This document shows, piece after piece, positions 8,265 through 32,000 of a DNA stretch of 32,000 nt. Position 1 is the first letter of the stretch, and the number at the start of each line of letters is the position of its first letter. Source of the stretch: Microcystis aeruginosa NIES-2549 (GTDB lineage Bacteria > Cyanobacteriota > Cyanobacteriia > Cyanobacteriales > Microcystaceae); NCBI RefSeq assembly GCF_000981785.2, contig NZ_CP011304.1:3510001-3542000 (forward strand), read 5' to 3'. The position numbers and the translations under genes are program-made. The notes under the pieces were generated by a model that searched no databases, was not told where the DNA came from, and saw only the letters and a list, made by a program, of their open reading frames with translations.

Positions 8265-8628
8265 TCGATCGCTTCTATTCGAGTTATTACTAGAGCTTGA
8301 AGAGGCGATCCGCCGGATCGAGCGGCGATTTACCCGGATTCAAAAAGCCGATGATTTCATCGCCGATGATGATGGACTCGATCGATTGGATGGCATTAGT
8401 ATGATGTTGATCGCGATTAGTGAAAATATTAGAAGACTCGATCGGCTAATGGCAGAGAGTTTAGCGAATCGCTATCCGGAAATTCCTTGGTCGGAGATTA
8501 AGGGAATCAGAAATATTCTCGCCCACGATTATTTTGACATCGATCCAGAGGAAATTTATCGGATTTGTAGGGAGGATCTGGCGATTTTGAAGCGGGTACT
8601 CGGGAAAATACGTCACGACCTCTTGTAA
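8257..8628 (+). CDS. hepT: HepT (DUF86) HEPN-domain toxin
   Basis: RNILAHDY (Rx4HxY HEPN motif) near the C-terminus. Coupled to the MNT gene. Confidence 0.85.
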   Translation: MCDRSLLFELLLELEEAIRRIERRFTRIQKADDFIADDDGLDRLDGISMMLIAISENIRRLDRLMAESLANRYPEIPWSEIKGIRNILAHDYFDIDPEEIYRICREDLAILKRVLGKIRHDLL

Positions 8629-8717
8629 TTATCGAAATTTCCCAATCAAACTGCTCCGCTCGGTCTTCACCCCGACATTTTTGATCAGGTTAAAAATCGC
8701 TTGGAGGGCTTACGGTG

Positions 8718-8882
8718 ATGGACGAAAAAGAAACAGGACTAAATGAACGGGAACTAGAGGAAATTCTGGAAATGGCACGGGATGCGGCGGAAAAAGCCCG
8801 ATCAATGTGCGAGGTAATTACAGAAAATTCAAAAAAATGGCGAGAAAGAGCAGAAAGAATCAATCGAACGGGATCGAGATAG
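8718..8882 (+). CDS. Possible small helical protein (54 aa), below the ORF-track cutoff
   Basis: Hand translation gives MDEKETGLNERELEEILEMARDAAEKARSMCEVITENSKKWRERAERINRTGSR*. GGAGGG at 8703-8708 lies 9 nt before the ATG. The competing minus-strand ORF looks like an antisense artefact. Confidence 0.3.
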   Translation: MDEKETGLNERELEEILEMARDAAEKARSMCEVITENSKKWRERAERINRTGSR

Positions 8883-9104
8883 CGATCGAGTATTTCTTCG
8901 ATTATAGGAGCGATCGAACTTGTATCGGAAAAGCGATCTCGATCAGGGGGTAAAGCAGCGAGAGGAACCCTTGTCACATCGAAACATTTCCTTAAGATAT
9001 AAGACCGAAGGTCCAGTCTGGATACAGAATTGATATACCTAGAATCGCTACTCTGGCTCACCCTCTAGGCCCTTCCCTTCCAGACTGCTAGGCTATTAGA
9101 CAAG

Positions 9105-17613: not shown

Positions 17614-18565
17614 TATAGCAAAGAGCGGGATAGTTAGGACATAATAGAGAAAAAGAAATGAGGAGAAGCTTTCATGGCAGCACCCTATAGTGATGATTTA
17701 AGACAGAAAGCAGTGAGTGCCGTAGAGCGAGGGGAGAAAAAAAGCCATGTCTGTCGCACCCTCAATATTAGTCGTAATACATTAGACATCTGGCTGAAAC
17801 GGAAGAAACAAACTGGGACGGTGGCCGCTAAAACTAACTATCGTCGAGGGCCCAAGCCCCAAATTGACGATTTAGAAGCCTTTCAAAAGTTTGCCGAACA
17901 ATATGGGCATTTGACCCAAGAAAAAATGGCGCAAAAATGGGCTAACCCAGTCAGTAGGATGAGAATTGGTCAAGCCCTCAAAAGAATTGGATTTACTAGA
18001 AAAAAAAAACTTATGGCTACAGAGAAAGAGAGGAAGAAGCCCGAAAAGAGTTTCTCCAAAAAATCAGAGGTTATGCCCCGGAAAGATTTGTCTATATTGA
18101 TGAAGCTGGAATAGATAACACCATCGATTACCCTTATGGATATTGTCACAAATCAGAAAGATTTGAGGCTTTAAAGTTAGGTCACTGTAGCGAACGAGTT
18201 AGTGTGATCAGCGGTTGGTGGCGTGGTTCCACTATCGCGCCAATGGTGTTTGAGGGGTACTGTAATACAGAGTTGGTGTGTGAGTGGATAGAACAATTGC
18301 TATTACCCGAACTACTACCCGGTCAAATTATCATCATTGATAACGCCAGTTTTCATCCCAAAGAGAGAATCAAAAAATTGTTAGCTAAAGCGGGATGTGA
18401 AGTGCTATTTTTACCCGCCTATTCTCCAGATCTCAACAAAATTGAAAAGTTCTGGGCTAGATTGAAAAACTATGTTAGTCAGATTATCAATGATAGTGAA
18501 AACCTTGTGGATGCTGTGAGTAAAGCCTTCAGGCATCTGTCCTAACTAACTCGTTTTATGCCATA
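17614..18565 (+). mobile_element. IS630-family insertion sequence (copy A)
   Basis: 28-bp terminal inverted repeats with 22/28 matches: TATAGCAAAGAGCGGGATAGTTAGGACA (17614-17641) against the reverse complement of 18538-18565. The outer TA is consistent with TA target duplication. Encodes a DDE transposase. Confidence 0.8.
17674..18545 (+). CDS. IS630-family transposase, split into two frames at an A10 run (orfA 17674-18114; orfB frame readable from 18009 to 18545)
   Basis: OrfA holds the HTH part (...RTLNISRNTLDIWLKR...). The -1 frame from 18009 reads TYGYREREEEARKEFLQKIRGYAPERFVYIDEAGID...IIIDNASFH...LPAYSPDLNKIEKFW (DDE motifs). The A10 run is at 18000-18009. Confidence 0.8.
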
Positions 18566-19404
18566 GCAGGAATTTTGTTCTGATTATCATCAAAAACTGA
18601 ACAAAGCATCCACAAAAGTAGAGGAGTTTCTCCCAATTCCTTGAGACGATTTCCCAACTGTTTAAGCATTTCTTCGCCTTTTTCAGGCAAATAGGCCTTG
18701 ACAAAATACCGCATCTGTGGTTCAGTCAGGGGAAGCATTTCCAGCTTTTTTTCAATATCTAAGTCGTCGCTGCCTAAATCCCTTGTCGTGAAAATCATCG
18801 GAATTTCTGCATACTGATGGCGAAAGTTTTTTAAATTCTGTCGTGCAGTATATGAGGGCAATTCATTGATACCATCAAATAATAATAATGGGCTAAAATT
18901 CTGATTTTCTAACAGCCAACTTTCTAGGGTATTACTATCAATAATTAATTTATGGCGTTTCAGGAATTGTAAAATTAAATCAAGAATTGAGGTTTCATAC
19001 AAGCGTAATTCGATGAGAATGGGAATTTGAATGATTTTAGCTTGATTTTGTTGATTTAGGCGCAAGCTTTGCGCCCCTACAGATTCTTCTAATAATAATC
19101 TGGCTAAAGCGGTCGATTTTCCTGAACCGGGACGACCTTTTAAAAGAACGTGATTAGCGGCATACTTGCGTAAACCATCTAAAACCGTGAATCTTTCGTT
19201 TTTTTCTGGTCTTTCTGGTCTTTCTTGTCGGTTTTGTGGTTCTTTTTCAATCGTCTGTACCCACAAATCCCTTAGCAAAGGTGCAGTTTTCGACGGGCGT
19301 GTTTTTCCCTCTACGTCCGTGAGGGTGTAAAATGTCTCCCATTGGGCGTACTTTTCCGAGATTGATTTGAGATAGGGAGTCCAGTCAATCATTGATGCTG
19401 TCAA
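18556..19404 (-). pseudogene. N-terminal fragment of a NACHT/STAND P-loop NTPase, terminated inside the IS630 terminus
   Basis: Walker A GRPGSGKST, Walker B LLLFDGINE, then ...ETPLLLWMLCSVF. The last 3 codons and the stop come from the IS terminal repeat. The expected helical/winged-helix part of NACHT is absent. Confidence 0.7.
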
Positions 19405-25141: not shown

Positions 25142-26172
25142 TTCTTGGAGCTATGAGGTACAATGAAAAGCAAATAGACAAATAATAGAACTCGCCAGCT
25201 TCCTATGAGACCCTATTCCGTAGATTTTCGCCAAAAAATTATCGATGTCTGGAAGAAAGAAAAAATTTCTATTCGAGGACTAGCCCAGAGATTTGACGTG
25301 GCTAAAAGCTTTATTCAGAAGTTATTGAAGCAACATAAAGAAACAGGAGATATCCGTCCTCGTCCACAAGGGGGAAGTCCGCCAACCAAGTTAAATAGTG
25401 AACAACTGATAATTTTAATAGAAATCATCGAATCTAACAATGATGCAACTCTCGAAGAATTATCGGACTTACTGTATGAAAAGACACAGGTGAAAGTCAG
25501 TAGAGCCACCCTGGGGCGGCTTACGCAAAAACTCAATTACAGTTTCAAAAAAAAAACACTACACGCGGCGGAAAAAGAAAGTGACAGGGTACAGCAAAAA
25601 AGAGTGGAATACTGGTCTCAAGTTCGGGAAATTGAGGCATCAAAACTAATTTTCATCGATGAATCGGGGGTAAATTTAGCCCTTTTGAGACTCTATGCCA
25701 GAGCCTTAATTGGTCGAAGAGATCGGGGAAGAAAACCACAAAAAAGAGGGAGAAATATTTCAATAATTAGTGCTATAAGCTTAGAAAAAGTTGTGGCATC
25801 AGTCAACATATACGGTGCAGTGGATGCGGTAACATTTGAAGGATTTATTCTGAAGGAAGTGCTGCCAAAAATTAAAGAAGGAGACTGTTTGCTCATGGAT
25901 AACGCCAAGATTCATCTCGGAGAAATGGTCAGAGAAATAATTGAACAAGAAAAAGCTAGACTCATCTATTTACCTCCTTATTCTCCCGAATTCTCTCCTA
26001 TTGAAAACTTTTGGTCAAAAGTCAAAGCGATATTAAGAAAACTGAAGGCGAGAACTTACAAAGACTTAATAGAAGGGATTGAATTAGCTATGTTAGAAGT
26101 TACTCAAAAAGATATTCGCAATTGGTTTACTCACTGTTGCTACTGTACCTCATGAGTCAGAGAATTGCTATA
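25134..26172 (+). mobile_element. IS630-family insertion sequence (copy B), apparently intact
   Basis: Termini TATAGC-N14-TGAGGTACA (25134-25162) and TGTACCTCA-N14-GCTATA (26144-26172). A single 316-aa transposase ORF lies inside. 1039 bp. Confidence 0.85.
25205..26155 (+). CDS. IS630-family DDE transposase (contiguous ORF)
   Basis: N-terminal HTH (...ISIRGLAQRFDVAKSFIQKLLKQ...), FIDESGVN, LLMDNAKIH, LPPYSPEFSPIENFWSKVK. The A10 run at 25547-25556 is read through in frame. Confidence 0.9.
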   Translation: MRPYSVDFRQKIIDVWKKEKISIRGLAQRFDVAKSFIQKLLKQHKETGDIRPRPQGGSPPTKLNSEQLIILIEIIESNNDATLEELSDLLYEKTQVKVSRATLGRLTQKLNYSFKKKTLHAAEKESDRVQQKRVEYWSQVREIEASKLIFIDESGVNLALLRLYARALIGRRDRGRKPQKRGRNISIISAISLEKVVASVNIYGAVDAVTFEGFILKEVLPKIKEGDCLLMDNAKIHLGEMVREIIEQEKARLIYLPPYSPEFSPIENFWSKVKAILRKLKARTYKDLIEGIELAMLEVTQKDIRNWFTHCCYCTS

Positions 26173-27016
26173 AGACATCATCTAAGCTTTCAAATCTTAG
26201 GACTAATGTTTCAAGTGAGTGAATCAACGGCTCATAATATCTTTACCTATTGGCAAAAACTTTTTGAATAAGAGTTACCGACAAGTTTGTTATAACAAAT
26301 AAAGAAGTGCCAAAAAGAGGAAATAATAATTGAACAATTAAGGGATTATGAGTTGATTGTCGATAGCGCAAAACAGCTCGTGGAGAGGCCGACCGATTAT
26401 CAAGAACAAAAAATATATTATTCGGGAAAGCAAAAAAGACATACTTTAAAAAGTCAATTTATTGTTTTGCCAAAAGCTGAAGATATTGTTGATGTATTTA
26501 TTGGTCAACCTAGTCCGACGAGCGACATAAAAATCTGTCGGGAAACTTTAAGCAAATTCGATTATCAACAAGCTTTTATTGGAGATAAAGCTTACCTGGG
26601 AGAAAATCAAATCAGAACTCCTGATAAAAAACCTAAGAACGGAGAATTAACCGAGAATCAAATTAAAGAAAATAAAGTTTTATTATCTCGGCGAATTTTT
26701 GTTGAGCATTTAATTCGAGTTGTCAAAGTATTTAAGGTAGTTCAAGAAAGATTTAGATTAAATATAGCGTTTTTCAGTCTGCTGAGGTACAAAAGTTATG
26801 GGTTTTAGGCAAAAGGCAAGAGGCAAAAGGCAAAGGGGAAGAAAAACAGGTGTACCTCACTAGCTTAGGAAACGCTATAAAAGTCGATATAAATCGGTTT
26901 TACTTACCGTTTGTGGCTTAGTAAGGTTGAGAATTAGTGCGCTAATTTTAGAATTAATAGAATGGGAGCAATCAGGGGAAGTAATTGACGTTATAATTAG
27001 CCATAGTTTTCCGTAA
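26173..27016 (+). pseudogene. IS5/Harbinger-type (DDE_Tnp_4) transposase pseudogene: 5'-truncated, in-frame stops, MITE insertion
   Basis: Reads RHHLSFQILGLMFQVSESTAHNIFTYWQKLFE*...*...ELIVDSAKQLVERP...YYSGKQKRHTLK...GDKAYLG...RIFVEHLI...ERFRLN. It is then interrupted at 26763-26879, and the frame resumes to a stop at 27014-27016 once the MITE is removed. Confidence 0.7.
26763..26879. mobile_element. 117-bp MITE (IS630-type termini) inserted in the IS5-type transposase gene
   Basis: TATAGC-N14-TGAGGTACA (26763-26791) and TGTACCTCA-N14-GCTATA (26851-26879). The interior holds AGGCAAA heptamer repeats. Flanked by TA. Confidence 0.8.
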
Positions 27017-27112
27017 AAATTCGATTTTGTCTCTTAAAACCCTGATTAATCGGTTTTTAGAGCTAATTTTGACTCTTGGTCTAATCTGCCTGTATTCCTT
27101 GCTGTGACTGAC

Positions 27113-27250
27113 TTACAAATTTTTGGAGATGTCTATTGCTCTTCTCTCTATAATCCCTGCCACCATGAATAAATTCTTGTCTTTCCATTGGGTTCTATCT
27201 ATTGCTAAGTACAGTCGTTTCCCTGGCTTGAATTTAATTTTAATTATTAT
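27113..27250 (-). pseudogene. Internal scrap of an IS4-like transposase fused in frame to the methyltransferase stump
   Basis: ...KPGKRLYLAIDRTQWKDKNLFMVAGIIERRAI... resembles the first catalytic-Asp region (AIDRTxW) of IS4-family transposases. There is an abrupt switch to AT-rich sequence at about 27250. Confidence 0.4.
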
Positions 27251-28126
27251 TCGATCGAATAGACCGCCGTTGAGATAGGGAATCTTGCCCCATTTTGAAT
27301 CGAGATTGGGACGCTGTTGGTTCAACGTCTGGAAAAATAAGGGTTCGAGGACGCTAGTGTAATATTCTGTGTCATCGGGGTCGGGTCTTAGATGTTTGTA
27401 TTGGGTAGTGAGGAAACGACGATCCCCCGCCAAAAACTCTTTCTTCTGGAGAAAGTAGAGGAACATTATCCTTCCTAACAGTCGCTGAGAGAACTGGTGT
27501 AAACGGTCTGAGTCCTCAAAATAGGGGTGGTCATTGTGCAACTTTACTGCCTGCTGAACCTGATCAAACAGTTGTTTATATCCCCTATAGAAACTCTTAG
27601 TCAGCTTCTCAACATCAAAGGCTTCACACTGTACCTTGTAGAGTTCCTGCGGTGACTTATCTCTGACAGCGATCGCTTCCAATCGATCGAGGTCGTAAGC
27701 GGTAGGATTGGTACGGTCAATTAAAAGTTTTCTGATGCTGGCCTTGAGATTCATCTTATCGTCAAAGCTCTTGCGGGGATTGACCAACATCAATTGGTTG
27801 TAGTCTTTGGTTGCCAATAAGAGAAACTCGGTATCACGACGACCTACCTGAGAAGCGATCGCTTTCATGCGACTACTGGCAACACTGGGGGAAGACCACT
27901 CCTCCGGCTGCAATTGGAACAGCAACACCTGTAATCCCCCATTCCCCTGATCGGCAATCAGGTAGGCATCATAGACGGCTTCGGCACTTCTGGAAGTTAA
28001 CTGCAAGTCCTCTAGGTTTAGAGGTTGCGCTTCGGCATCGTAACCTAACCGATGGAATAGGGCCGCTACCCCATCGGGGCTAGTTAAAGTCTTTAAATCG
28101 TCTAGTCTTAGTAATCGTTCCGGCAT
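27251..28126 (-). pseudogene. N-terminal fragment of a type IIG restriction-modification / BREX PglX-like DNA methyltransferase
   Basis: ALFHRLGY..., LLLATKDYNQLMLVNPR, FDVEKLTKSFYRGYKQLF, LLGRIMFLYFLQKKEFL, IPYLNGGLFD are conserved N-terminal motifs of this family. No SAM-binding or NPPY module follows. The ORF runs into IS debris. Confidence 0.6.
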
Positions 28127-28375
28127 TTCCCCAACTTCCAAAACTGATTTCGATTATTCCTCTTAGGCGATCGCCTACCCGCCCTTTGGTGATGGATCAG
28201 CAAAACTATCGATTATTATCAATGCAATTGTCAAGGTTTACCACCTATCTCTAGGATGCCACGAATAGCGGTCAATACTTCACTTTCTCTCACCAGAAGT
28301 AAAGTAGTACAGAGTTATCCCTTAGTAAAGATGAAGGGGAACTATAGTTAAGAAAGGGAACTGGGAATCGGAACG

Positions 28376-29308
28376 ATGATCGAGCGACACAGAAGGAGAT
28401 TGGCTAACGGGGAGGAGCGGGTCTATACTTACGGGGTTGGAGCGGACGGTGAGCGTCAGTCTTTGTCGATCCGTTCCGTTGATGGTTCCGTTTCAATCTC
28501 CTGCTATAGGGGAGCAGAAAAAGAGCGGGTGGTGGCCGCCCTACTAGCCAATGCCAGTTTGTTGGTGGTGGGGGAAGACGGAGCGGGGAAGACCTTTTTA
28601 GCGGAGCGGGTAATCGAGGACTTGTGGGGGCGGGGGTTTCCGGTGGCCGCCCCTGCCATCGGCACGGTCAAACAGATGCTTCTGGAAATCGCCGGGGATT
28701 TGGGGGTAGATACGGAAACGCTAGAGGGCAAACCGATGACGGCACAACAGTTACAGGAAACCATCGCCGAATGGTTAGAGGGTAACGTCGCTTTTCTAGT
28801 CATGGACAATGCCCACAGGTTCCCCGTTTCCCTGCGTTGTTGGCTGGAAAAACTGCATTTACAGGGACAGCCGATATTATTGTTGGCCACTTACCCCCCG
28901 GCCCGAGATATTTTTTTGAAGCTTCCCCGCATCGAATTGGAAGCTTTACCAGAAAGGGCGATCCGCGAAATTATGGAAGGAGAAGCGGTCAGTTTGGGAT
29001 TGCAGGTGACACCGGGTAAACTAGCCGATTGGCAACAACGGGCGATCGGTAATCCCATGTTAGCCAAACGGGTGGTCAAGGAAGAATATTTAGGATTGGA
29101 GGGTAATAATTATGACCATACCCAGTGGATCGACGGTACTCCCCTACTAATTGCGGTTCTCATGTGTTTTATGATTCTGCGATTCTTGGGACTCGGTTTT
29201 AATAACACCAGTCTTTATCTGATCGGAGGGATACTGACTGTAGCGGTGGGAATGGTCAGGTTGATGATTTATTCCTTACCCCGACAGTCTAACCGTTTGG
29301 GACGCTGA
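28376..29308 (+). CDS. Membrane-anchored P-loop ATPase (AAA_22/TniB-ExeA-like core, two C-terminal TM helices)
   Basis: Walker A GEDGAGKT, Walker B-like AFLVMDNAH, and the C-terminal hydrophobic segments LLIAVLMCFMILRFLGLGF and LYLIGGILTVAVGMVRLMIY. Confidence 0.7.
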   Translation: MIERHRRRLANGEERVYTYGVGADGERQSLSIRSVDGSVSISCYRGAEKERVVAALLANASLLVVGEDGAGKTFLAERVIEDLWGRGFPVAAPAIGTVKQMLLEIAGDLGVDTETLEGKPMTAQQLQETIAEWLEGNVAFLVMDNAHRFPVSLRCWLEKLHLQGQPILLLATYPPARDIFLKLPRIELEALPERAIREIMEGEAVSLGLQVTPGKLADWQQRAIGNPMLAKRVVKEEYLGLEGNNYDHTQWIDGTPLLIAVLMCFMILRFLGLGFNNTSLYLIGGILTVAVGMVRLMIYSLPRQSNRLGR

Positions 29309-29320
29309 TCTTATTGATCA

Positions 29321-29393
29321 GTTGTTAGTTATCGGTTATCAGTTATCGGCTATTAGTTGTCAGTTTACCTATTACCTATTACCGATTACCGAT
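29321..29393. repeat. Two adjacent heptanucleotide arrays (GTTATCR x6, TACCKAT x4)
   Basis: 29321-29362: GTTGTTA GTTATCG GTTATCA GTTATCG GCTATTA GTTGTCA. 29366-29393: TACCTAT TACCTAT TACCGAT TACCGAT. Confidence 0.85.
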
Positions 29394-29474
29394 CACAGCC
29401 AAAAACCAACCTTTGCCGATCGATAATTTAATTATAATTTACAATTCTCACCTCCCAATTCAGAACTGATAAAC

Positions 29475-29536
29475 TATAATTTGTAATCTATAATTCACAA
29501 TTTATAATTCATAATTTATAACTCATAATTTATATT
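29475..29536. repeat. Four 14-bp tandem repeats, each holding a TATAAT/TATAAC hexamer, abutting the start codon at 29537
   Basis: TATAATTTGTAATC / TATAATTCACAATT / TATAATTCATAATT / TATAACTCATAATT / TATATT, then ATGATG. Confidence 0.85.
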
Positions 29537-30589
29537 ATGATGAGCGTCACTCATATAGCCTTTTCGGTAGCTTTGACGAGCATAACGTTGGGAACCGCCA
29601 ATCCGGAGATATTGGGCATAGCGGCAGTGGCGGCCTTGTTGCCAGATATTGACACGGGCAAAAGCTCGATCGGACGGCTCTTGTTTCCCGTCAGCAGTTG
29701 GCTAGAAAAGAGAACGGTTCACCGGGGCATAACCCACAGTTTCTTTGCGTCGGGTGTCGTCACCCTTGCGGCTTATCCCCTAGCCCTACTGGGTTATAGT
29801 CAACTCTGGTACGGTCTGATTCTCGGTTACTTTTTCGGCTGGTTTGCCGATGTTTTTACCAAGTCGGGAGTGCAGGCGTTCTATCCCGGTCGGGGAAGGA
29901 TGATCATCCCCAGAAATCCTCGTTTGAGGTTGGCCACGGGCAGTAATGCCGAGTGGTTCCTGCTGTTTGTTCTTGTGGTCGTCTCGGTTATGAGTATTTC
30001 TATCAACAGTGGTGGTGGTCTGATTCGCGGATTCAATCAGGTGTTGGGTTTGCCGTCGGGAGCGATCGAGACGGTGAACGAGGATGCTTCCCGTTATCTG
30101 TTGCGAGTTAGGGTTCAAGGGAGAAATGCCATTACCGAACAGCCGGTGGATGCCACCTACGAGGTAATCGAACCGTTGACCGTTAGCGATCTGCTGGTCA
30201 AGGACGAAGGGGGAACGTTGTACCGACTGGGTTCGAGTCAGGAATCTCAGATCATCGCGTCCCGCATTCGGGTGGAACGGGTCGCACCAGTCCAAGTAAA
30301 GATCGAAAATATTGTCTTGGAAGATGAGTATTTAGATAGGCTCGCTAATTTAACGGAACCCTTCGGCGTAGCTCAGGGTAACAGGGTATATTTAACGGGA
30401 ACGCTGACCATTGCCGATGGTTCGGGTCTAAGTTTGCCCAGTCATGCCGACCGTTTCGATACTATTACCCTACAACCGGGTCACGTCGCCTACGCCCGAC
30501 TTACCGCCGCTAGTCCCCAGTATGTGATCGACAAGTTGGGAGAATACAGCGTTTCAGGTCATCTCATCGCTAGGATCATAAATGTTTAA
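29537..30589 (+). CDS. YdjM/DUF457-type membrane-bound metal-dependent hydrolase fused to an unassigned ~185-aa C-terminal domain
   Basis: N-terminal THIAFSVAL..., LLPDIDTGKSSIGR and HRGITHS, with 4-5 TM segments up to about residue 165. The remainder is soluble, beta-rich-looking, with no motif I recognise. Confidence 0.7.
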   Translation: MMSVTHIAFSVALTSITLGTANPEILGIAAVAALLPDIDTGKSSIGRLLFPVSSWLEKRTVHRGITHSFFASGVVTLAAYPLALLGYSQLWYGLILGYFFGWFADVFTKSGVQAFYPGRGRMIIPRNPRLRLATGSNAEWFLLFVLVVVSVMSISINSGGGLIRGFNQVLGLPSGAIETVNEDASRYLLRVRVQGRNAITEQPVDATYEVIEPLTVSDLLVKDEGGTLYRLGSSQESQIIASRIRVERVAPVQVKIENIVLEDEYLDRLANLTEPFGVAQGNRVYLTGTLTIADGSGLSLPSHADRFDTITLQPGHVAYARLTAASPQYVIDKLGEYSVSGHLIARIINV

Positions 30590-31676
30590 TAAACAGCAGA
30601 AACCATTACCCACCGCCGTTTTACGGGCCACCAATTCCCCATCGGACGAATCATCGCCACCGTCTGGCATTCTCTTGGGGGATAACTGTTATTGGAATCC
30701 TGGTCATCTCCCCAACGGTCACATCGTCGCCATCGGTGCATCCGGTAGTGGCAAAACCCAGACCCTCAAAGCGATCGCTTATTCCCTCAGACAGACCTAT
30801 CCCGATATTCAGTTATTTATCATCGATTTCCACGGTGATCAAGAGATTATCGGCGAAACTTGTTATCCCCTGCACATGGCCAGTTCTCACGGCATCAATC
30901 CCCTGATTGTCAACCTCGATGCTGAAGGGGGTGGTCCCCATCTACAGGCCATCGCCGTTACCACCACTCTAAAACGTTCTTTGCAGTTGGGACCAAATCA
31001 GGAGGGTTTACTGTTAGAAATATTGCAATTTTGTTATGACCGGCGGGGTATCAGCCAAGAACAACCGACAAGTTGGACAAGGGAAGCGCCCAATTTTACC
31101 GATTTGCAGCAGGAGATCGAGTCGCGGGTGGAGAGCGGCTGTAAGGAATCGCAAAAACTGAAACTGAAACTGATAGCCACCTTCACCTACGGTGTCTTCT
31201 GCCGTCCTCAACCCAACTTCACCGAGAAACATATCCGCATCGACCTCTCGAAATTACCGCCGGAGATCGGGGCGATCGCCGCCGAATCCTTGGCCTGGCA
31301 ATTGATGAACCAACACCGGTTAACCGGCGAAATCGAAGGGAAACTACCCCGTACCTACCTATTCATCGATGAGGCTAAAGAATTGCGGAAAAGTCGGGCC
31401 TGTGACCGCATCATCGCTGACGGTCGTAAATACGGGCTGGGTTTGGTGTTGGCATCCCAATCGGAACGACATCTCAGCGACGACGTGATCGGTAACTCCT
31501 CTACCAAAATCGTTTTGCCAGTGGACCAATCGGAAGTGAAACGGGTGGCCGCCAAATTCCGGTTTGCCGAGAAGAAAGTAGCCGAGTTAGTACCCTTGAC
31601 CGCCCTATGTCGTTTCGGCAAACAGGCAGAAGTGACCAGTATCTTTCCCTATCACCGGAGGGTAGAAGATGGTTAG
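30582..31676 (+). CDS. HerA/FtsK-superfamily P-loop ATPase (DUF87-like)
   Basis: GHIVAIGASGSGKTQT (Walker A), YLFIDEAKEL (Walker B), GRKYGLGLVLASQSERHLSDDVIGNSSTKIVL. Its start overlaps the upstream stop by 8 nt (ATGTTTAA). Confidence 0.8.
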   Translation: MFNKQQKPLPTAVLRATNSPSDESSPPSGILLGDNCYWNPGHLPNGHIVAIGASGSGKTQTLKAIAYSLRQTYPDIQLFIIDFHGDQEIIGETCYPLHMASSHGINPLIVNLDAEGGGPHLQAIAVTTTLKRSLQLGPNQEGLLLEILQFCYDRRGISQEQPTSWTREAPNFTDLQQEIESRVESGCKESQKLKLKLIATFTYGVFCRPQPNFTEKHIRIDLSKLPPEIGAIAAESLAWQLMNQHRLTGEIEGKLPRTYLFIDEAKELRKSRACDRIIADGRKYGLGLVLASQSERHLSDDVIGNSSTKIVLPVDQSEVKRVAAKFRFAEKKVAELVPLTALCRFGKQAEVTSIFPYHRRVEDG

Positions 31677-32000
31677 CACTCTTTCTAAGTCAAAACCCCA
31701 CCAGCGACGCACCGAGAAGGTTTTTACTATCCTCGACGGCGCACCCCCTGGTACGACCTACGAAGGTCTGATCTCGTTGGTACGGGAGAAAACGGGTAAG
31801 GGTTGTTCCCGCAAGCTGATTAGTCGCTGGAAACGGGAACGCACGGGAGAAACCGTCTCAGAAATTCCAACTGTCTTGGAAATTCCAACTGTCTTAGAAA
31901 TTCCAACTGTCTTAGAAACGATCGCTTCTCAAAAAACACTCAGACAAAGTTCAGTGCCTGGCCTGAGCCACGTCGAAGGGCTTGCCCTGAGAGAAGCCGA
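31669..32000 (+). CDS. Hypothetical basic protein with EIPTVL x3 repeat, 3'-partial (continues beyond the window)
   Basis: Hand translation gives MVSTLSKSKPHQRRTEKVFTILDGAPPGTTYEGLISLVREKTGKGCSRKLISRWKRERTGETVSEIPTVLEIPTVLEIPTVLETIASQK... with no stop before 32000. Its start overlaps the upstream stop by 8 nt (ATGGTTAG). Confidence 0.6.
   Translation, partial: MVSTLSKSKPHQRRTEKVFTILDGAPPGTTYEGLISLVREKTGKGCSRKLISRWKRERTGETVSEIPTVLEIPTVLEIPTVLETIASQKTLRQSSVPGLSHVEGLALREA
31861..31914 (+). repeat. Three tandem 18-bp in-frame repeats GAAATTCCAACTGTCTT(G/A)
   Basis: Units at 31861, 31879 and 31897, differing only at the last base of unit 1. Confidence 0.9.

Follow-up and report, generated by a model that had tools for sequence, protein, structure and literature searches.

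Tripartite exporters such as HlyB-HlyD-TolC, MacAB-TolC and EmrAB-TolC bring together a periplasmic adaptor, a TolC-type partner and an inner-membrane transporter of the ABC, RND or MFS type. The Streptomyces TraB, Thermus TdtA and archaeal Ced systems transfer DNA by means of ATPases of the FtsK/HerA superfamily, encoded on mobile elements that carry neither a relaxase nor VirB4. For Thermus thermophilus TdtA, this 'transjugation' has been described as a process in which the donor 'pushes' the DNA and the competent recipient 'pulls' it (PMC5365140). In this study, we have analysed 32,000 nucleotides (nt) of the chromosome of the cyanobacterium Microcystis aeruginosa NIES-2549 (contig NZ_CP011304.1, positions 3,510,001 to 3,542,000; the window is this whole stretch), the end of which holds the first genes of a five-gene operon, here named g1 to g5, that recurs on cyanobacterial plasmids and combines predicted HlyD-like and TolC-like parts with an FtsK/HerA-superfamily ATPase. 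We regard it as a serious possibility, although short of a probable one, that this plasmid operon builds an envelope-spanning machine, with plasmid DNA as the likeliest cargo.

Results

Gene order and plasmid linkage

Four intact open reading frames lie on the same strand at the end of the window (Table 1), and the listing of open reading frames and their translation confirm the positions and motifs that a first-pass annotation, made from the letters alone, had given for them. The module was then thought to comprise four genes; a fifth, g5, follows beyond the window and is seen on plasmid p1 (147.5 kb) of M. aeruginosa NIES-2481. The frames of g2 and g3 overlap by 8 nt (ATGTTTAA, 30582-30589), as do those of g3 and g4 (ATGGTTAG, 31669-31676). 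Both overlaps had been read as a sign of translational coupling, which they bear out, and coupled translation of g2, g3 and g4 suggests a complex.

A scan of one genome per GTDB species returned 62 loci, nearly all of them cyanobacterial, and synteny was counted over the loci with a full-length g2 (52), with enough upstream flank (50) or with at least 4.5 kb downstream (36). The g1 gene lies directly upstream of g2, ending within 600 nt of it, in 36 of the 50 loci, and the two overlap by 1 or 4 nt in 25 loci. Downstream of g2, among the 36 loci, g3 is present in 28, g4 in 29, g5 in 25 and all three in 21, so that the conserved co-occurrence put forward in the first-pass annotation as a test of the module has been found. 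These counts come from blast-based clusters and not from an iterated g3 hidden Markov model, which g5 sequences had entered. The order g1-g2-g3-g4-g5 recurs in Aphanothece, Crocosphaera, Pleurocapsales, Acaryochloris, Thermosynechococcaceae and many Nostocales, where it is kept although g2 is only 34-39% identical, as well as on plasmid pSYSX of Synechocystis 6803 (SGL_RS01390-01410); plasmid pMAL of Synechococcus elongatus UTEX 3055 has a reduced form with g1-g4 only. The same proteins in the same order in dozens of loci across distant cyanobacteria are more than chance would produce.

The operon is part of the cyanobacterial plasmid backbone. Homologues of g2 were detected by tblastn on 61 plasmids of PLSDB, with hosts that include Synechocystis (13), Thermus (10), Synechococcus (7), Nostoc (5), Picosynechococcus (5), Nitrosococcus (3), Allochromatium and others, and full-length g3 is found on about 28 cyanobacterial plasmids. 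Non-mobilizable typing (MOB-suite, as given in PLSDB) applies to 60 of the 61 g2-bearing plasmids, and no relaxase is annotated in the p1, pSYSX, UTEX 3055, Thermus and Allochromatium regions read; among phage records, none carries the module. ParA is encoded within 10 kb of the operon in 26 loci, and ParB, a small RHH protein and DUF3854/CyRepA replication proteins are also found there. It is thus a plasmid backbone, and not the defence island suggested initially, that forms the context conserved across genomes, the type IIG methyltransferase, insertion sequence (IS) elements and toxin-antitoxin (TA) genes being specific to Microcystis p1 and to the chromosomal insertion.

Two metagenome-assembled genomes (MAGs), HOU_bin.0041 and SM2_3_2, each hold six or seven diverged g1-g2 copies on separate contigs, and one diverged copy per contig or plasmid is the pattern expected of a plasmid-specific function. 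Several of these MAG copies are without g3-g5 or retain decayed remnants of them, with transposases or DUF3854 replication genes nearby.

Two further genes accompany the operon. One of them, g0, is linked to it in 33 loci, directly upstream of g1 in Nostocales, and its product has no Pfam, PADLOC or PHROG match; the N-terminus of this protein resembles a small motif for DNA binding, and the C-terminal end is strongly basic. The other encodes a staphylococcal-type thermonuclease (SNase) with a signal peptide and is found no more than 10 kb away in 15 loci of two phyla, among them pSYSX, UTEX 3055, both Thermus plasmids examined and ten Nostocales loci. The SNase may serve the operon as a sixth functional partner, either being its cargo or processing DNA.

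Adaptor-like and TolC-like components

On p1, g4 encodes 532 amino acids (aa) and its end is overlapped by g5. The g4 orthologues have in common a transmembrane (TM) helix and, after it, the invariant strand 'LKVKxGxxIxxGQIISD', a long coiled coil and the strand 'V(R/K)SPxxGxIxxIKxW', a layout that appears to be the one known from membrane fusion proteins, with their split lipoyl-like domain and alpha-hairpin. In an AlphaFold2 (AF2) model of the Aphanothece orthologue (P0138), the pLDDT of the hairpin is above 90, and when this model was compared with the PDB by Foldseek the ten best matches were all periplasmic adaptors, led by HlyD (prob 0.97, E 2e-3) and including EmrA, MacA and adaptor chains of MacAB-TolC and AcrAB-TolC, with LipC at rank 13. 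PGAP labels the Nostoc and Thermus counterparts 'HlyD family'. We thus predict g4 to be an adaptor of the HlyD-like type, which extends from an inner-membrane anchor into the periplasm.

The part of g4 inside the window comprises a cytoplasmic basic three-helix domain, which is an N-terminal extra of Chroococcales, and an EIPTVL repeat (an 18-nt tandem repeat of 3.8 copies). The initial description of gene 4 as a basic repeat protein was thus accurate for this part, and under-read the protein as a whole. Downstream of the EIPTVL repeat there is a second short repeat region, in which the window and p1 differ (…SSVPGLSHVEGLALREA and …SSVFTLREAEGFTLREA, respectively), so that the repeat content of the cytoplasmic linker of g4 varies.

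The product of g5 (229-265 aa), labelled 'TolC family protein' by PGAP, has a signal peptide, two invariant Cys residues and a helical region in the alignment of orthologues. Nine of 16 orthologues match Pfam OEP (PF02321), the best at 3.1e-6, and that of Microcystis is above the cutoff of 22 bits with a score of 23.6; g5 would accordingly appear to be a secreted protein with a single TolC-type repeat. With an adaptor-like g4 and a TolC-like g5, the picture shifts from a cytoplasmic ATPase-plus-effector module to an envelope-spanning apparatus.

The membrane protein g2 and the ATPases g1 and g3

Residues 1-154 of g2 match PF04307 YdjM (1.6e-25, 90 bits, cutoff 29) and the remaining ~190 aa match no family, in agreement with the earlier reading of a YdjM/DUF457 N-terminus joined to a domain that could not be placed. 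The protein consists of an N-terminal multi-TM domain, a last TM helix preceded by an Arg/Lys-rich loop (residues 105-138) and the ~190-aa C-domain, which is rich in beta-structure. Its mean column identity is 69%, and in an alignment of 16 sequences H6, D37, H62, H67 and D105 are conserved, H6 being nearly invariant and the others fully so. This His/Asp set suggests that g2 may hold a functional metal site, probably at the cytoplasmic face, whose substrate would be a phosphodiester. YdjM-type proteins of the g2 family give recurrent sub-threshold matches to Zn-dependent phospholipase C, and the Pfam clan of YdjM is presumably shared with phospholipase C and S1/P1 nuclease. A by-eye reading of the positive-inside rule, together with the Thermus fusion described below, would place the C-domain in the periplasm. 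The AF2 model of g2, with its beta-rich C-domain (pLDDT 65.9), gave no Foldseek match in the PDB at E<=0.001; partial similarity to TrmB and WYL-type beta domains was set aside as not interpretable at a pLDDT of 66. The g2 profile had zero matches among PDB sequences, that is, no solved structure is related to it by sequence.

The g1 protein is a STAND/ORC-like P-loop ATPase (Pfam AAA_22, 1.1e-10; Walker A GEDGAGKT, Walker B FLVMDNAH), and hydropathy reveals two C-terminal hydrophobic helices (249-277 and 278-302) that form a two-helix membrane anchor, as had been proposed from the letters. In the alignment of 16 orthologues the Walker motifs are invariant, the mean column identity is 48% and a DH..W/YxDxTP motif is conserved ahead of the anchor. 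Other similarities include weak nSTAND/NACHT matches, a match to PHROG 296 'DNA transposition protein' (6e-7) and, for the g1 profile in the PDB, generic AAA+/STAND P-loop matches.

In the Microcystis window g1 and g2 are uncoupled by a 228-nt spacer of 28% G+C, with tandem repeats of the heptamers ATCAGTT, TTACCGA and TATAATT in up to 8.6 copies. The repeats overlap promoter-like hexamers upstream of g2, and the spacer from 29379 onward is common to p1; it is probably a local promoter for g2-g5. Placing g1 outside the module, on the ground that p1 has 4.4 kb between g1 and g2, was considered and rejected, as g1-g2 overlap is the common state across genomes.

The g3 protein has no TM segment and carries the motifs GASGSGKTQT (Walker A), YLFIDEAKE (Walker B), ADGRKYG and ASQS; these catalytic motifs are invariant in 15 orthologues, at a mean column identity of 67%. 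The family is a tight one, with only 36 clusters at 50% identity scoring below 1e-30 in an exhaustive phmmer search, and the protein is presumably hexameric. Among Pfam models, TrwB_AAD_bind alone exceeds its cutoff (35.8 bits, cutoff 20.5; best stretch residues 252-309, ~60 residues around Walker B), DUF87, HerA_C and FtsK_SpoIIIE all being below theirs and T4SS-DNA_transf giving E=0.2. The HerA/FtsK-type assignment of the first-pass annotation holds. The best sequence matches are those to PADLOC mad8 (2.9e-22, nearly full length) and to the C-terminus of DndH (1.4e-20, aligned only to about 1320-1645 of the DndH models), and the best relative in the PDB is the DptH ATPase domain (7es4, 2.5e-20).

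In Pleurocapsales, Xenococcaceae and Crocosphaera, ~110-150 aa are inserted in frame into g3, immediately before the invariant Cys of 'GCKES' (Table 1), and include a nuclease domain of the GIY-YIG type (Pfam 4.6e-8). The insert may be a nuclease module that is functional or a homing endonuclease that has become domesticated, and it hints that the substrate of g3 could be DNA. An intein was rejected as its origin, as the GIY-YIG domain is present and intein termini are absent.

Reduced versions of the operon

Small Thermus plasmids encode three related proteins, namely a g1-like ATPase that keeps the C-terminal two-helix tail, a 'TolC family' protein of 228-230 aa and a 551-aa protein in which g2 and a HlyD-like lipoyl/hairpin tail are naturally fused. 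The TolC family proteins score 34-38 bits against OEP; the match of the pPS18 copy (2.4e-8) covers one complete repeat and that of the SNM7-6 copy (2.1e-9) the distal half. The fusion protein matches YdjM at 6.5e-26 and the g2 profile at 1.4e-42, with the C-domain included; its family has at least 69 members, with lengths of ~520-580 aa. It links g2 and g4 functionally and puts the g2 C-domain on the adaptor (periplasmic) side, which agrees with the positive-inside reading. On T. thermophilus pTthSNM7-6d, the two halves of the fusion are separate or frameshifted.

The g3 gene is missing in the versions of Thermus, Allochromatium pALVIN01 and an 'Acidobacteria' MAG, which suggests that the ancestral core consisted of g1, g2, the adaptor and the TolC-like protein, with g3, the HerA-type ATPase, added in cyanobacteria. 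On Allochromatium vinosum pALVIN01, g1-g2 are followed by a gene for a CHAP-domain peptidoglycan hydrolase, which is another envelope-crossing theme, and g3, g4 and g5 were not detected there. The pALVIN01 region is phage-plasmid-like, with ssb and a Gp157-family gene.

Origin of the segment in the window

Blastn aligns 27251-29312 of the window with p1 at 97.4% identity and 29379-32000 at 99.0%, and g3 is residue-for-residue identical to the p1 copy. The 66 nt between them (29313-29378) consist of heptamer repeats only and have no p1 match. The module has a G+C content of 50.3%, compared with 42.3% in positions 1-27250, and its G+C at third codon positions (GC3) is 57%, whereas glsF and the malic enzyme gene have 48% and the remaining neighbouring genes 26-41%; the compositional contrast is genuine and larger than the hand counts of the first-pass annotation implied. 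The foreign or mobile origin proposed there is supported by the near-identity to p1, and the block is a plasmid-derived segment captured in the Microcystis chromosome. Plasmid p1 carries 4.4 kb between g1 and g2 that are lacking in the window and encode a Uma2 endonuclease, a CyRepA1 (DUF3854) replication gene and a 66-aa open reading frame; other Microcystis contigs (L006, L007) have an intermediate 2.4-kb interval with Uma2 only.

Upstream in the window lie the malic enzyme, VanY, hydrolase and GT41 genes, taken as housekeeping, then two IS transposase genes, and then a fragment of a type IIG restriction-modification gene, which the transposase genes adjoin. The type IIG enzyme is intact on p1 (1,124 aa), where it neighbours the operon together with a SLATT/nucleotidyltransferase pair and TA genes. 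No Rfam family was found in 26800-32000. A 282-aa open reading frame with sub-threshold NACHT and AAA_22 matches (Table 1) is probably what had been described as a broken STAND NTPase, and is unrelated to the module. The chromosome of Acaryochloris marina MBIC11017 (NC_009925.1; L028, L035) has two operon copies with g2, g3 or g4 fragmented, which look like decaying integrated plasmid segments comparable to the window.

Table 1. Positions of the operon genes and associated features (window numbering, unless a locus number starting with L is given)
Feature	Coordinates	Strand	Description
g1	28376-29308	+	310 aa, AAA_22 P-loop ATPase
g1-g2 spacer	29309-29536	+	A+T-rich, heptamer tandem repeats (29317-29393 and 29475-29534), sigma-70-like hexamers
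g2	29537-30589	+	350 aa, inner-membrane YdjM/DUF457 protein
g3	30582-31676	+	364 aa, soluble FtsK/HerA-superfamily ATPase
g4, first 110 of ~530 codons	31669-32000	+	Open frame, exits the window end
EIPTVL repeat of g4	31851-31918		18-nt tandem repeat
Plasmid-derived segment	27251-32000		97-99% identity to M. aeruginosa NIES-2481 plasmid p1
Type IIG fragment	27113-28141	-	342-aa N-terminal fragment of MmeI-like restriction-modification enzyme
IS transposase genes	25205-26808		IS630-family (DDE_3) and IS5-like (DDE_Tnp_4)
282-aa open reading frame	18556-19404	-	Sub-threshold NACHT and AAA_22 matches
Extra 4.4 kb of p1	L001 4420-8797		Between g1 and g2
g3 with GIY-YIG insert	L012 13385-14860; also L010, L013-L016, L021, L025		Insert between g3 residues 186 and 187; equivalent site g3 codons 186/187, ~window 31139
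g0	L040-L062, e.g. L058 ~8314-8931; L002 23899-24513; L068		~205 aa
SNase	L068 10224-10895 (pSYSX); L071 4435-4905; L069 8901-9599; L074 11234-11977; L003 7910-8617		Signal-peptide thermonuclease
g2-adaptor fusion	L074 9001-10656 (Thermus sp. PS18 plasmid pPS18); L069 7001-8634		551 aa
CHAP-domain hydrolase	L070 9287-10174		A. vinosum pALVIN01
Diverged g1-g2 copies, HOU_bin.0041	L012, L013, L015, L016, L018, L019, L022		MAG
Diverged g1-g2 copies, SM2_3_2	L031-L037		MAG

Discussion

From the domain identities, the gene order and its conservation, the plasmid linkage and the Thermus fusion of g2 with the adaptor, we infer a working model, whose membrane topology, physical complex, transport direction and cargo are put forward conditionally. 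In this model, g2 would be the inner-membrane platform, with its metal site and periplasmic beta-domain, and the membrane-tethered AAA_22 ATPase g1 would be coupled to it. The HlyD-type adaptor g4, anchored in the inner membrane, would send its long alpha-hairpin across the periplasm to meet a distal duct formed by multimers of g5. In cyanobacteria, the soluble, presumably hexameric motor g3 would attach from the cytoplasm and drive the cargo into the machine. Were the cargo plasmid DNA, the apparatus would be a relaxase-independent donation or export device, following a logic like that of Streptomyces TraB or Thermus TdtA.

DNA is favoured as the cargo by the motor family to which g3 belongs, by the GIY-YIG variants of this protein and by the position of the operon in the plasmid backbone, as well as by the absence of known transfer genes from these plasmids and the precedent of TraB and TdtA (PMC5365140). 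The typing of 60 of the 61 plasmids as non-mobilizable leaves room for an unrecognised transfer function. Many of the hosts are naturally competent, which fits the push-pull model of Thermus TdtA. In its boldest form, which we consider rather unlikely as it stands, the operon would be a conjugation-like exporter of plasmid DNA that works without a relaxase or a type IV secretion system and constitutes a fourth kind of tripartite envelope machine: the YdjM-type protein and the AAA_22 ATPase, together with the FtsK/HerA motor in cyanobacteria, would drive DNA through the HlyD-like/TolC-like conduit, and naturally competent neighbours would take it up.

Several observations weigh against a DNA-exporting machine. 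The absence of g3 from the Thermus, Allochromatium and 'Acidobacteria' versions puts the DNA motor outside the ancestral core, and in sequence g3 is closest to ATPases of defence systems (DptH/DndH, MAD8 and anti-phage HerA). No relaxase, origin-of-transfer or clt-like site was identified, and the linked secreted SNase suits a nuclease-export or anti-DNA role at least equally well. The Foldseek E-values of g4 are modest (2e-3 at best, none at E<=0.001), and its profile gave no significant match to PDB sequences, only a weak one to a biotinyl domain. The OEP matches of g5 are likewise modest, and its profile had no significant match among PDB sequences; hhalign comparisons of the g4 profile with Escherichia coli EmrA and of the g5 profile with E. 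coli TolC were not significant, and are uninformative since each template was a single sequence. In addition, the g2 model is of moderate confidence and its topology was assigned by eye.

An adaptor and a TolC-like part are what characterises export pumps, and the same components could instead serve protein secretion, in which g1/g2, the g4 adaptor and the g5 duct would expel a protein, taken from the periplasm or the cytoplasm, across the outer membrane in a MacAB-TolC-like or type I-like manner. Candidate cargoes would be the Sec-dependent SNase, linked to loci in two phyla as described above, and the secreted proline-rich proteins encoded just downstream in Nostocales (neighbour clusters 8 and 12), and the lack of g3 in the ancestral core is in line with such a task. 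However, the operon has no ABC, RND or MFS transporter, and the SNase is missing from most loci, the Microcystis region included. Protein secretion also leaves unexplained both the FtsK/HerA motor, sometimes with a GIY-YIG domain and strongly conserved in cyanobacteria, and the presence of an own operon copy on each plasmid, and we judge it improbable. We hold in equally low regard the proposal of defence or exclusion, in which invading phage or plasmid DNA would be sensed or processed by the STAND-like g1 and the HerA-like g3. Membrane-embedded g2, as a metal-dependent effector of the phosphodiesterase or phospholipase type, would then harm either the membrane or the nucleic acid coming in, by way of abortive infection or entry exclusion, and the DNA entry route would be guarded by the periplasmic parts. 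The kinship of g3 with defence ATPases is in line with it, as are the weak nSTAND/NACHT matches of g1, the sub-threshold phospholipase C matches of YdjM proteins, the type IIG enzyme, SLATT/nucleotidyltransferase pair and TA genes beside the p1 operon, and the fact that plasmids commonly carry defence genes. Nevertheless, MAD6 and MAD7 are absent, g2, g4, g5 and g0 have no PADLOC match, and adaptor and TolC-like parts occur in no known defence system; moreover, the conserved neighbours are partition and replication genes, and several diverged copies per genome, one per plasmid, are not what a defence gene needs.

The first-pass annotation had also offered a relic DNA-translocation or transposition module as an alternative to defence. 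DNA translocation has turned out to be closer to the best reading than defence is, whereas the TniB/transposition part falls for want of a conserved adjacent transposase. A TniB/MuB-like ATPase and a DNA pump left by a Tn7- or Mu-like element might account for the AAA_22 and PHROG 296 matches of g1 and for the IS elements just upstream in the window, but the IS630- and IS5-like genes there are unrelated insertions, and no conserved transposase or TniQ-like neighbour exists in ~60 loci. Since, in addition, g1 is membrane-anchored and translationally coupled to a membrane protein, and all genes are intact and strongly constrained, a relic of this kind is barely credible, and the synteny analysis effectively refutes it.

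Cyanobacterial plasmids, those of the bloom-forming Microcystis and of the model strains Synechocystis 6803 and S. elongatus among them, are almost all typed as non-mobilizable and yet are exchanged in nature, and the operon is a candidate for the missing transfer route. Should DNA export by this machine prove true, it would be categorically new and would explain the spread of 'non-mobilizable' cyanobacterial and Thermus plasmids; otherwise, the operon may represent a new secretion or exclusion route. It also gives a first functional context to the widespread, uncharacterised YdjM/DUF457 family. As genetically tractable hosts carry the operon on dispensable plasmids, the system is directly testable, and it may bear on plasmid stability, containment and vector design in cyanobacteria.

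Comparison with known systems

No named system matches the operon, as the first-pass annotation had supposed, and a literature search found no paper on it. Scans of all components with PADLOC, NCBIfam and PHROGs named no system and returned only generic ATPase matches or matches to the ATPase domain of g3; the NCBIfam scores all stayed below the curated cutoffs. In PADLOC, only g3 matches (the mad8, DndH and HerA ATPase domains); the models gave nothing for g2, g4, g5 and g0, and for g1 only marginal hits (E>=0.02) in the P-loop region. PGAP annotates the parts separately, as 'ATP-binding protein' (g1), 'metal-dependent hydrolase' (g2), 'type IV secretion system DNA-binding domain-containing protein' or DUF87 (g3), 'hypothetical' or 'HlyD family' (g4) and 'TolC family' (g5). 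Judged by its component sequences, the operon appears to fall outside type IV secretion, type I secretion, MADS, Dnd, HerA-NurA and Tn7-type modules.

With MADS and DndFGH/DptFGH the operon shares the g3 ATPase domain only. MADS requires MAD6, MAD7 and MAD8 together (bioRxiv 10.1101/2023.03.30.534895), and here MAD6, MAD7, DndF, DndG and the long N-terminal region of DndH (~1,700 aa in full) are absent, the partners being membrane or periplasmic proteins instead; the mad models gave nothing beyond P-loop noise with g1, g2, g4, g5 and g0, and PADLOC found no DndF or DndG match among the components. The PADLOC HerA models cover only ~50-100 residues of g3, the NCBIfam HerA models score 22-28 bits (cutoffs 800-970), and no NurA, SIR2 or DUF4297 partner occurs in the conserved neighbourhood. 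As to g1, the GspA/ExeA protein of type II secretion is likewise an AAA_22 ATPase of the cytoplasm that is held at the inner membrane and cooperates with envelope proteins, but g1 lacks a peptidoglycan-binding domain on the periplasmic side, and no significant likeness was found outside the P-loop fold.

The coupling proteins VirD4/TrwB resemble g3 in that it passes the TrwB_AAD_bind threshold; the match, however, spans only ~60 residues, the N-terminal TM domain is lacking and there are no VirB4, relaxase or mating-pair genes. No VirB4-size ATPase was found among the conserved families around the module in ~60 loci, and g3 scores 27.5 bits against TIGR00929 (cutoff 643). The likeness to TraB, TdtA and Ced is closer in kind, as in all of them an FtsK/HerA-superfamily ATPase is encoded on a mobile element with no relaxase or VirB4 and the hosts include naturally competent bacteria; in Ced, as here, a polytopic membrane protein is paired with a HerA/VirB4-like ATPase. 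These systems, however, transfer DNA, whereas for the present operon such transfer is a proposal; g3 is short (364 aa), with neither a TM segment nor a DNA-recognition domain of its own, and is not closely related to TraB, TdtA or CedB (34.5 bits against NCBIfam CedB, cutoff 700; 42 against CedD, cutoff 600). An NCBIfam scan of g1, g2 and the g4 fragment gave no Ced family, the presence of CedA-type models in that library being unchecked, and the adaptor and TolC-like parts have no counterpart in the TraB, TdtA and Ced systems.

It is with the tripartite exporters that these last two parts are shared, since an anchored lipoyl/alpha-hairpin adaptor (g4, by its P0138 model and invariant lipoyl-like half-motifs, at an E-value of 2e-3 at best) would meet a partner with an OEP/TolC repeat (g5), and since, much as in MacB, an ATPase (g1) would power an inner-membrane protein (g2) whose periplasmic domain is sizeable. 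The differences lie in the parts themselves and in what powers them. Canonical adaptors possess a beta-barrel domain and a membrane-proximal domain that g4 lacks, TolC carries two repeats and g5 a single one, and the operon is encoded in a plasmid backbone. A Pfam scan of g1-g3 for ABC membrane, RND and MFS domains found none, only ABC_tran at the g3 P-loop (E=0.047); in place of such a transporter there is an inner-membrane protein of the YdjM/DUF457 type with a metal site, and the ATPases are of the AAA_22 and FtsK/HerA types. Adaptor- and TolC-type parts are here reused with unprecedented inner-membrane and motor components, a new partnership of HlyD/TolC-type parts with motors other than ABC, RND and MFS.

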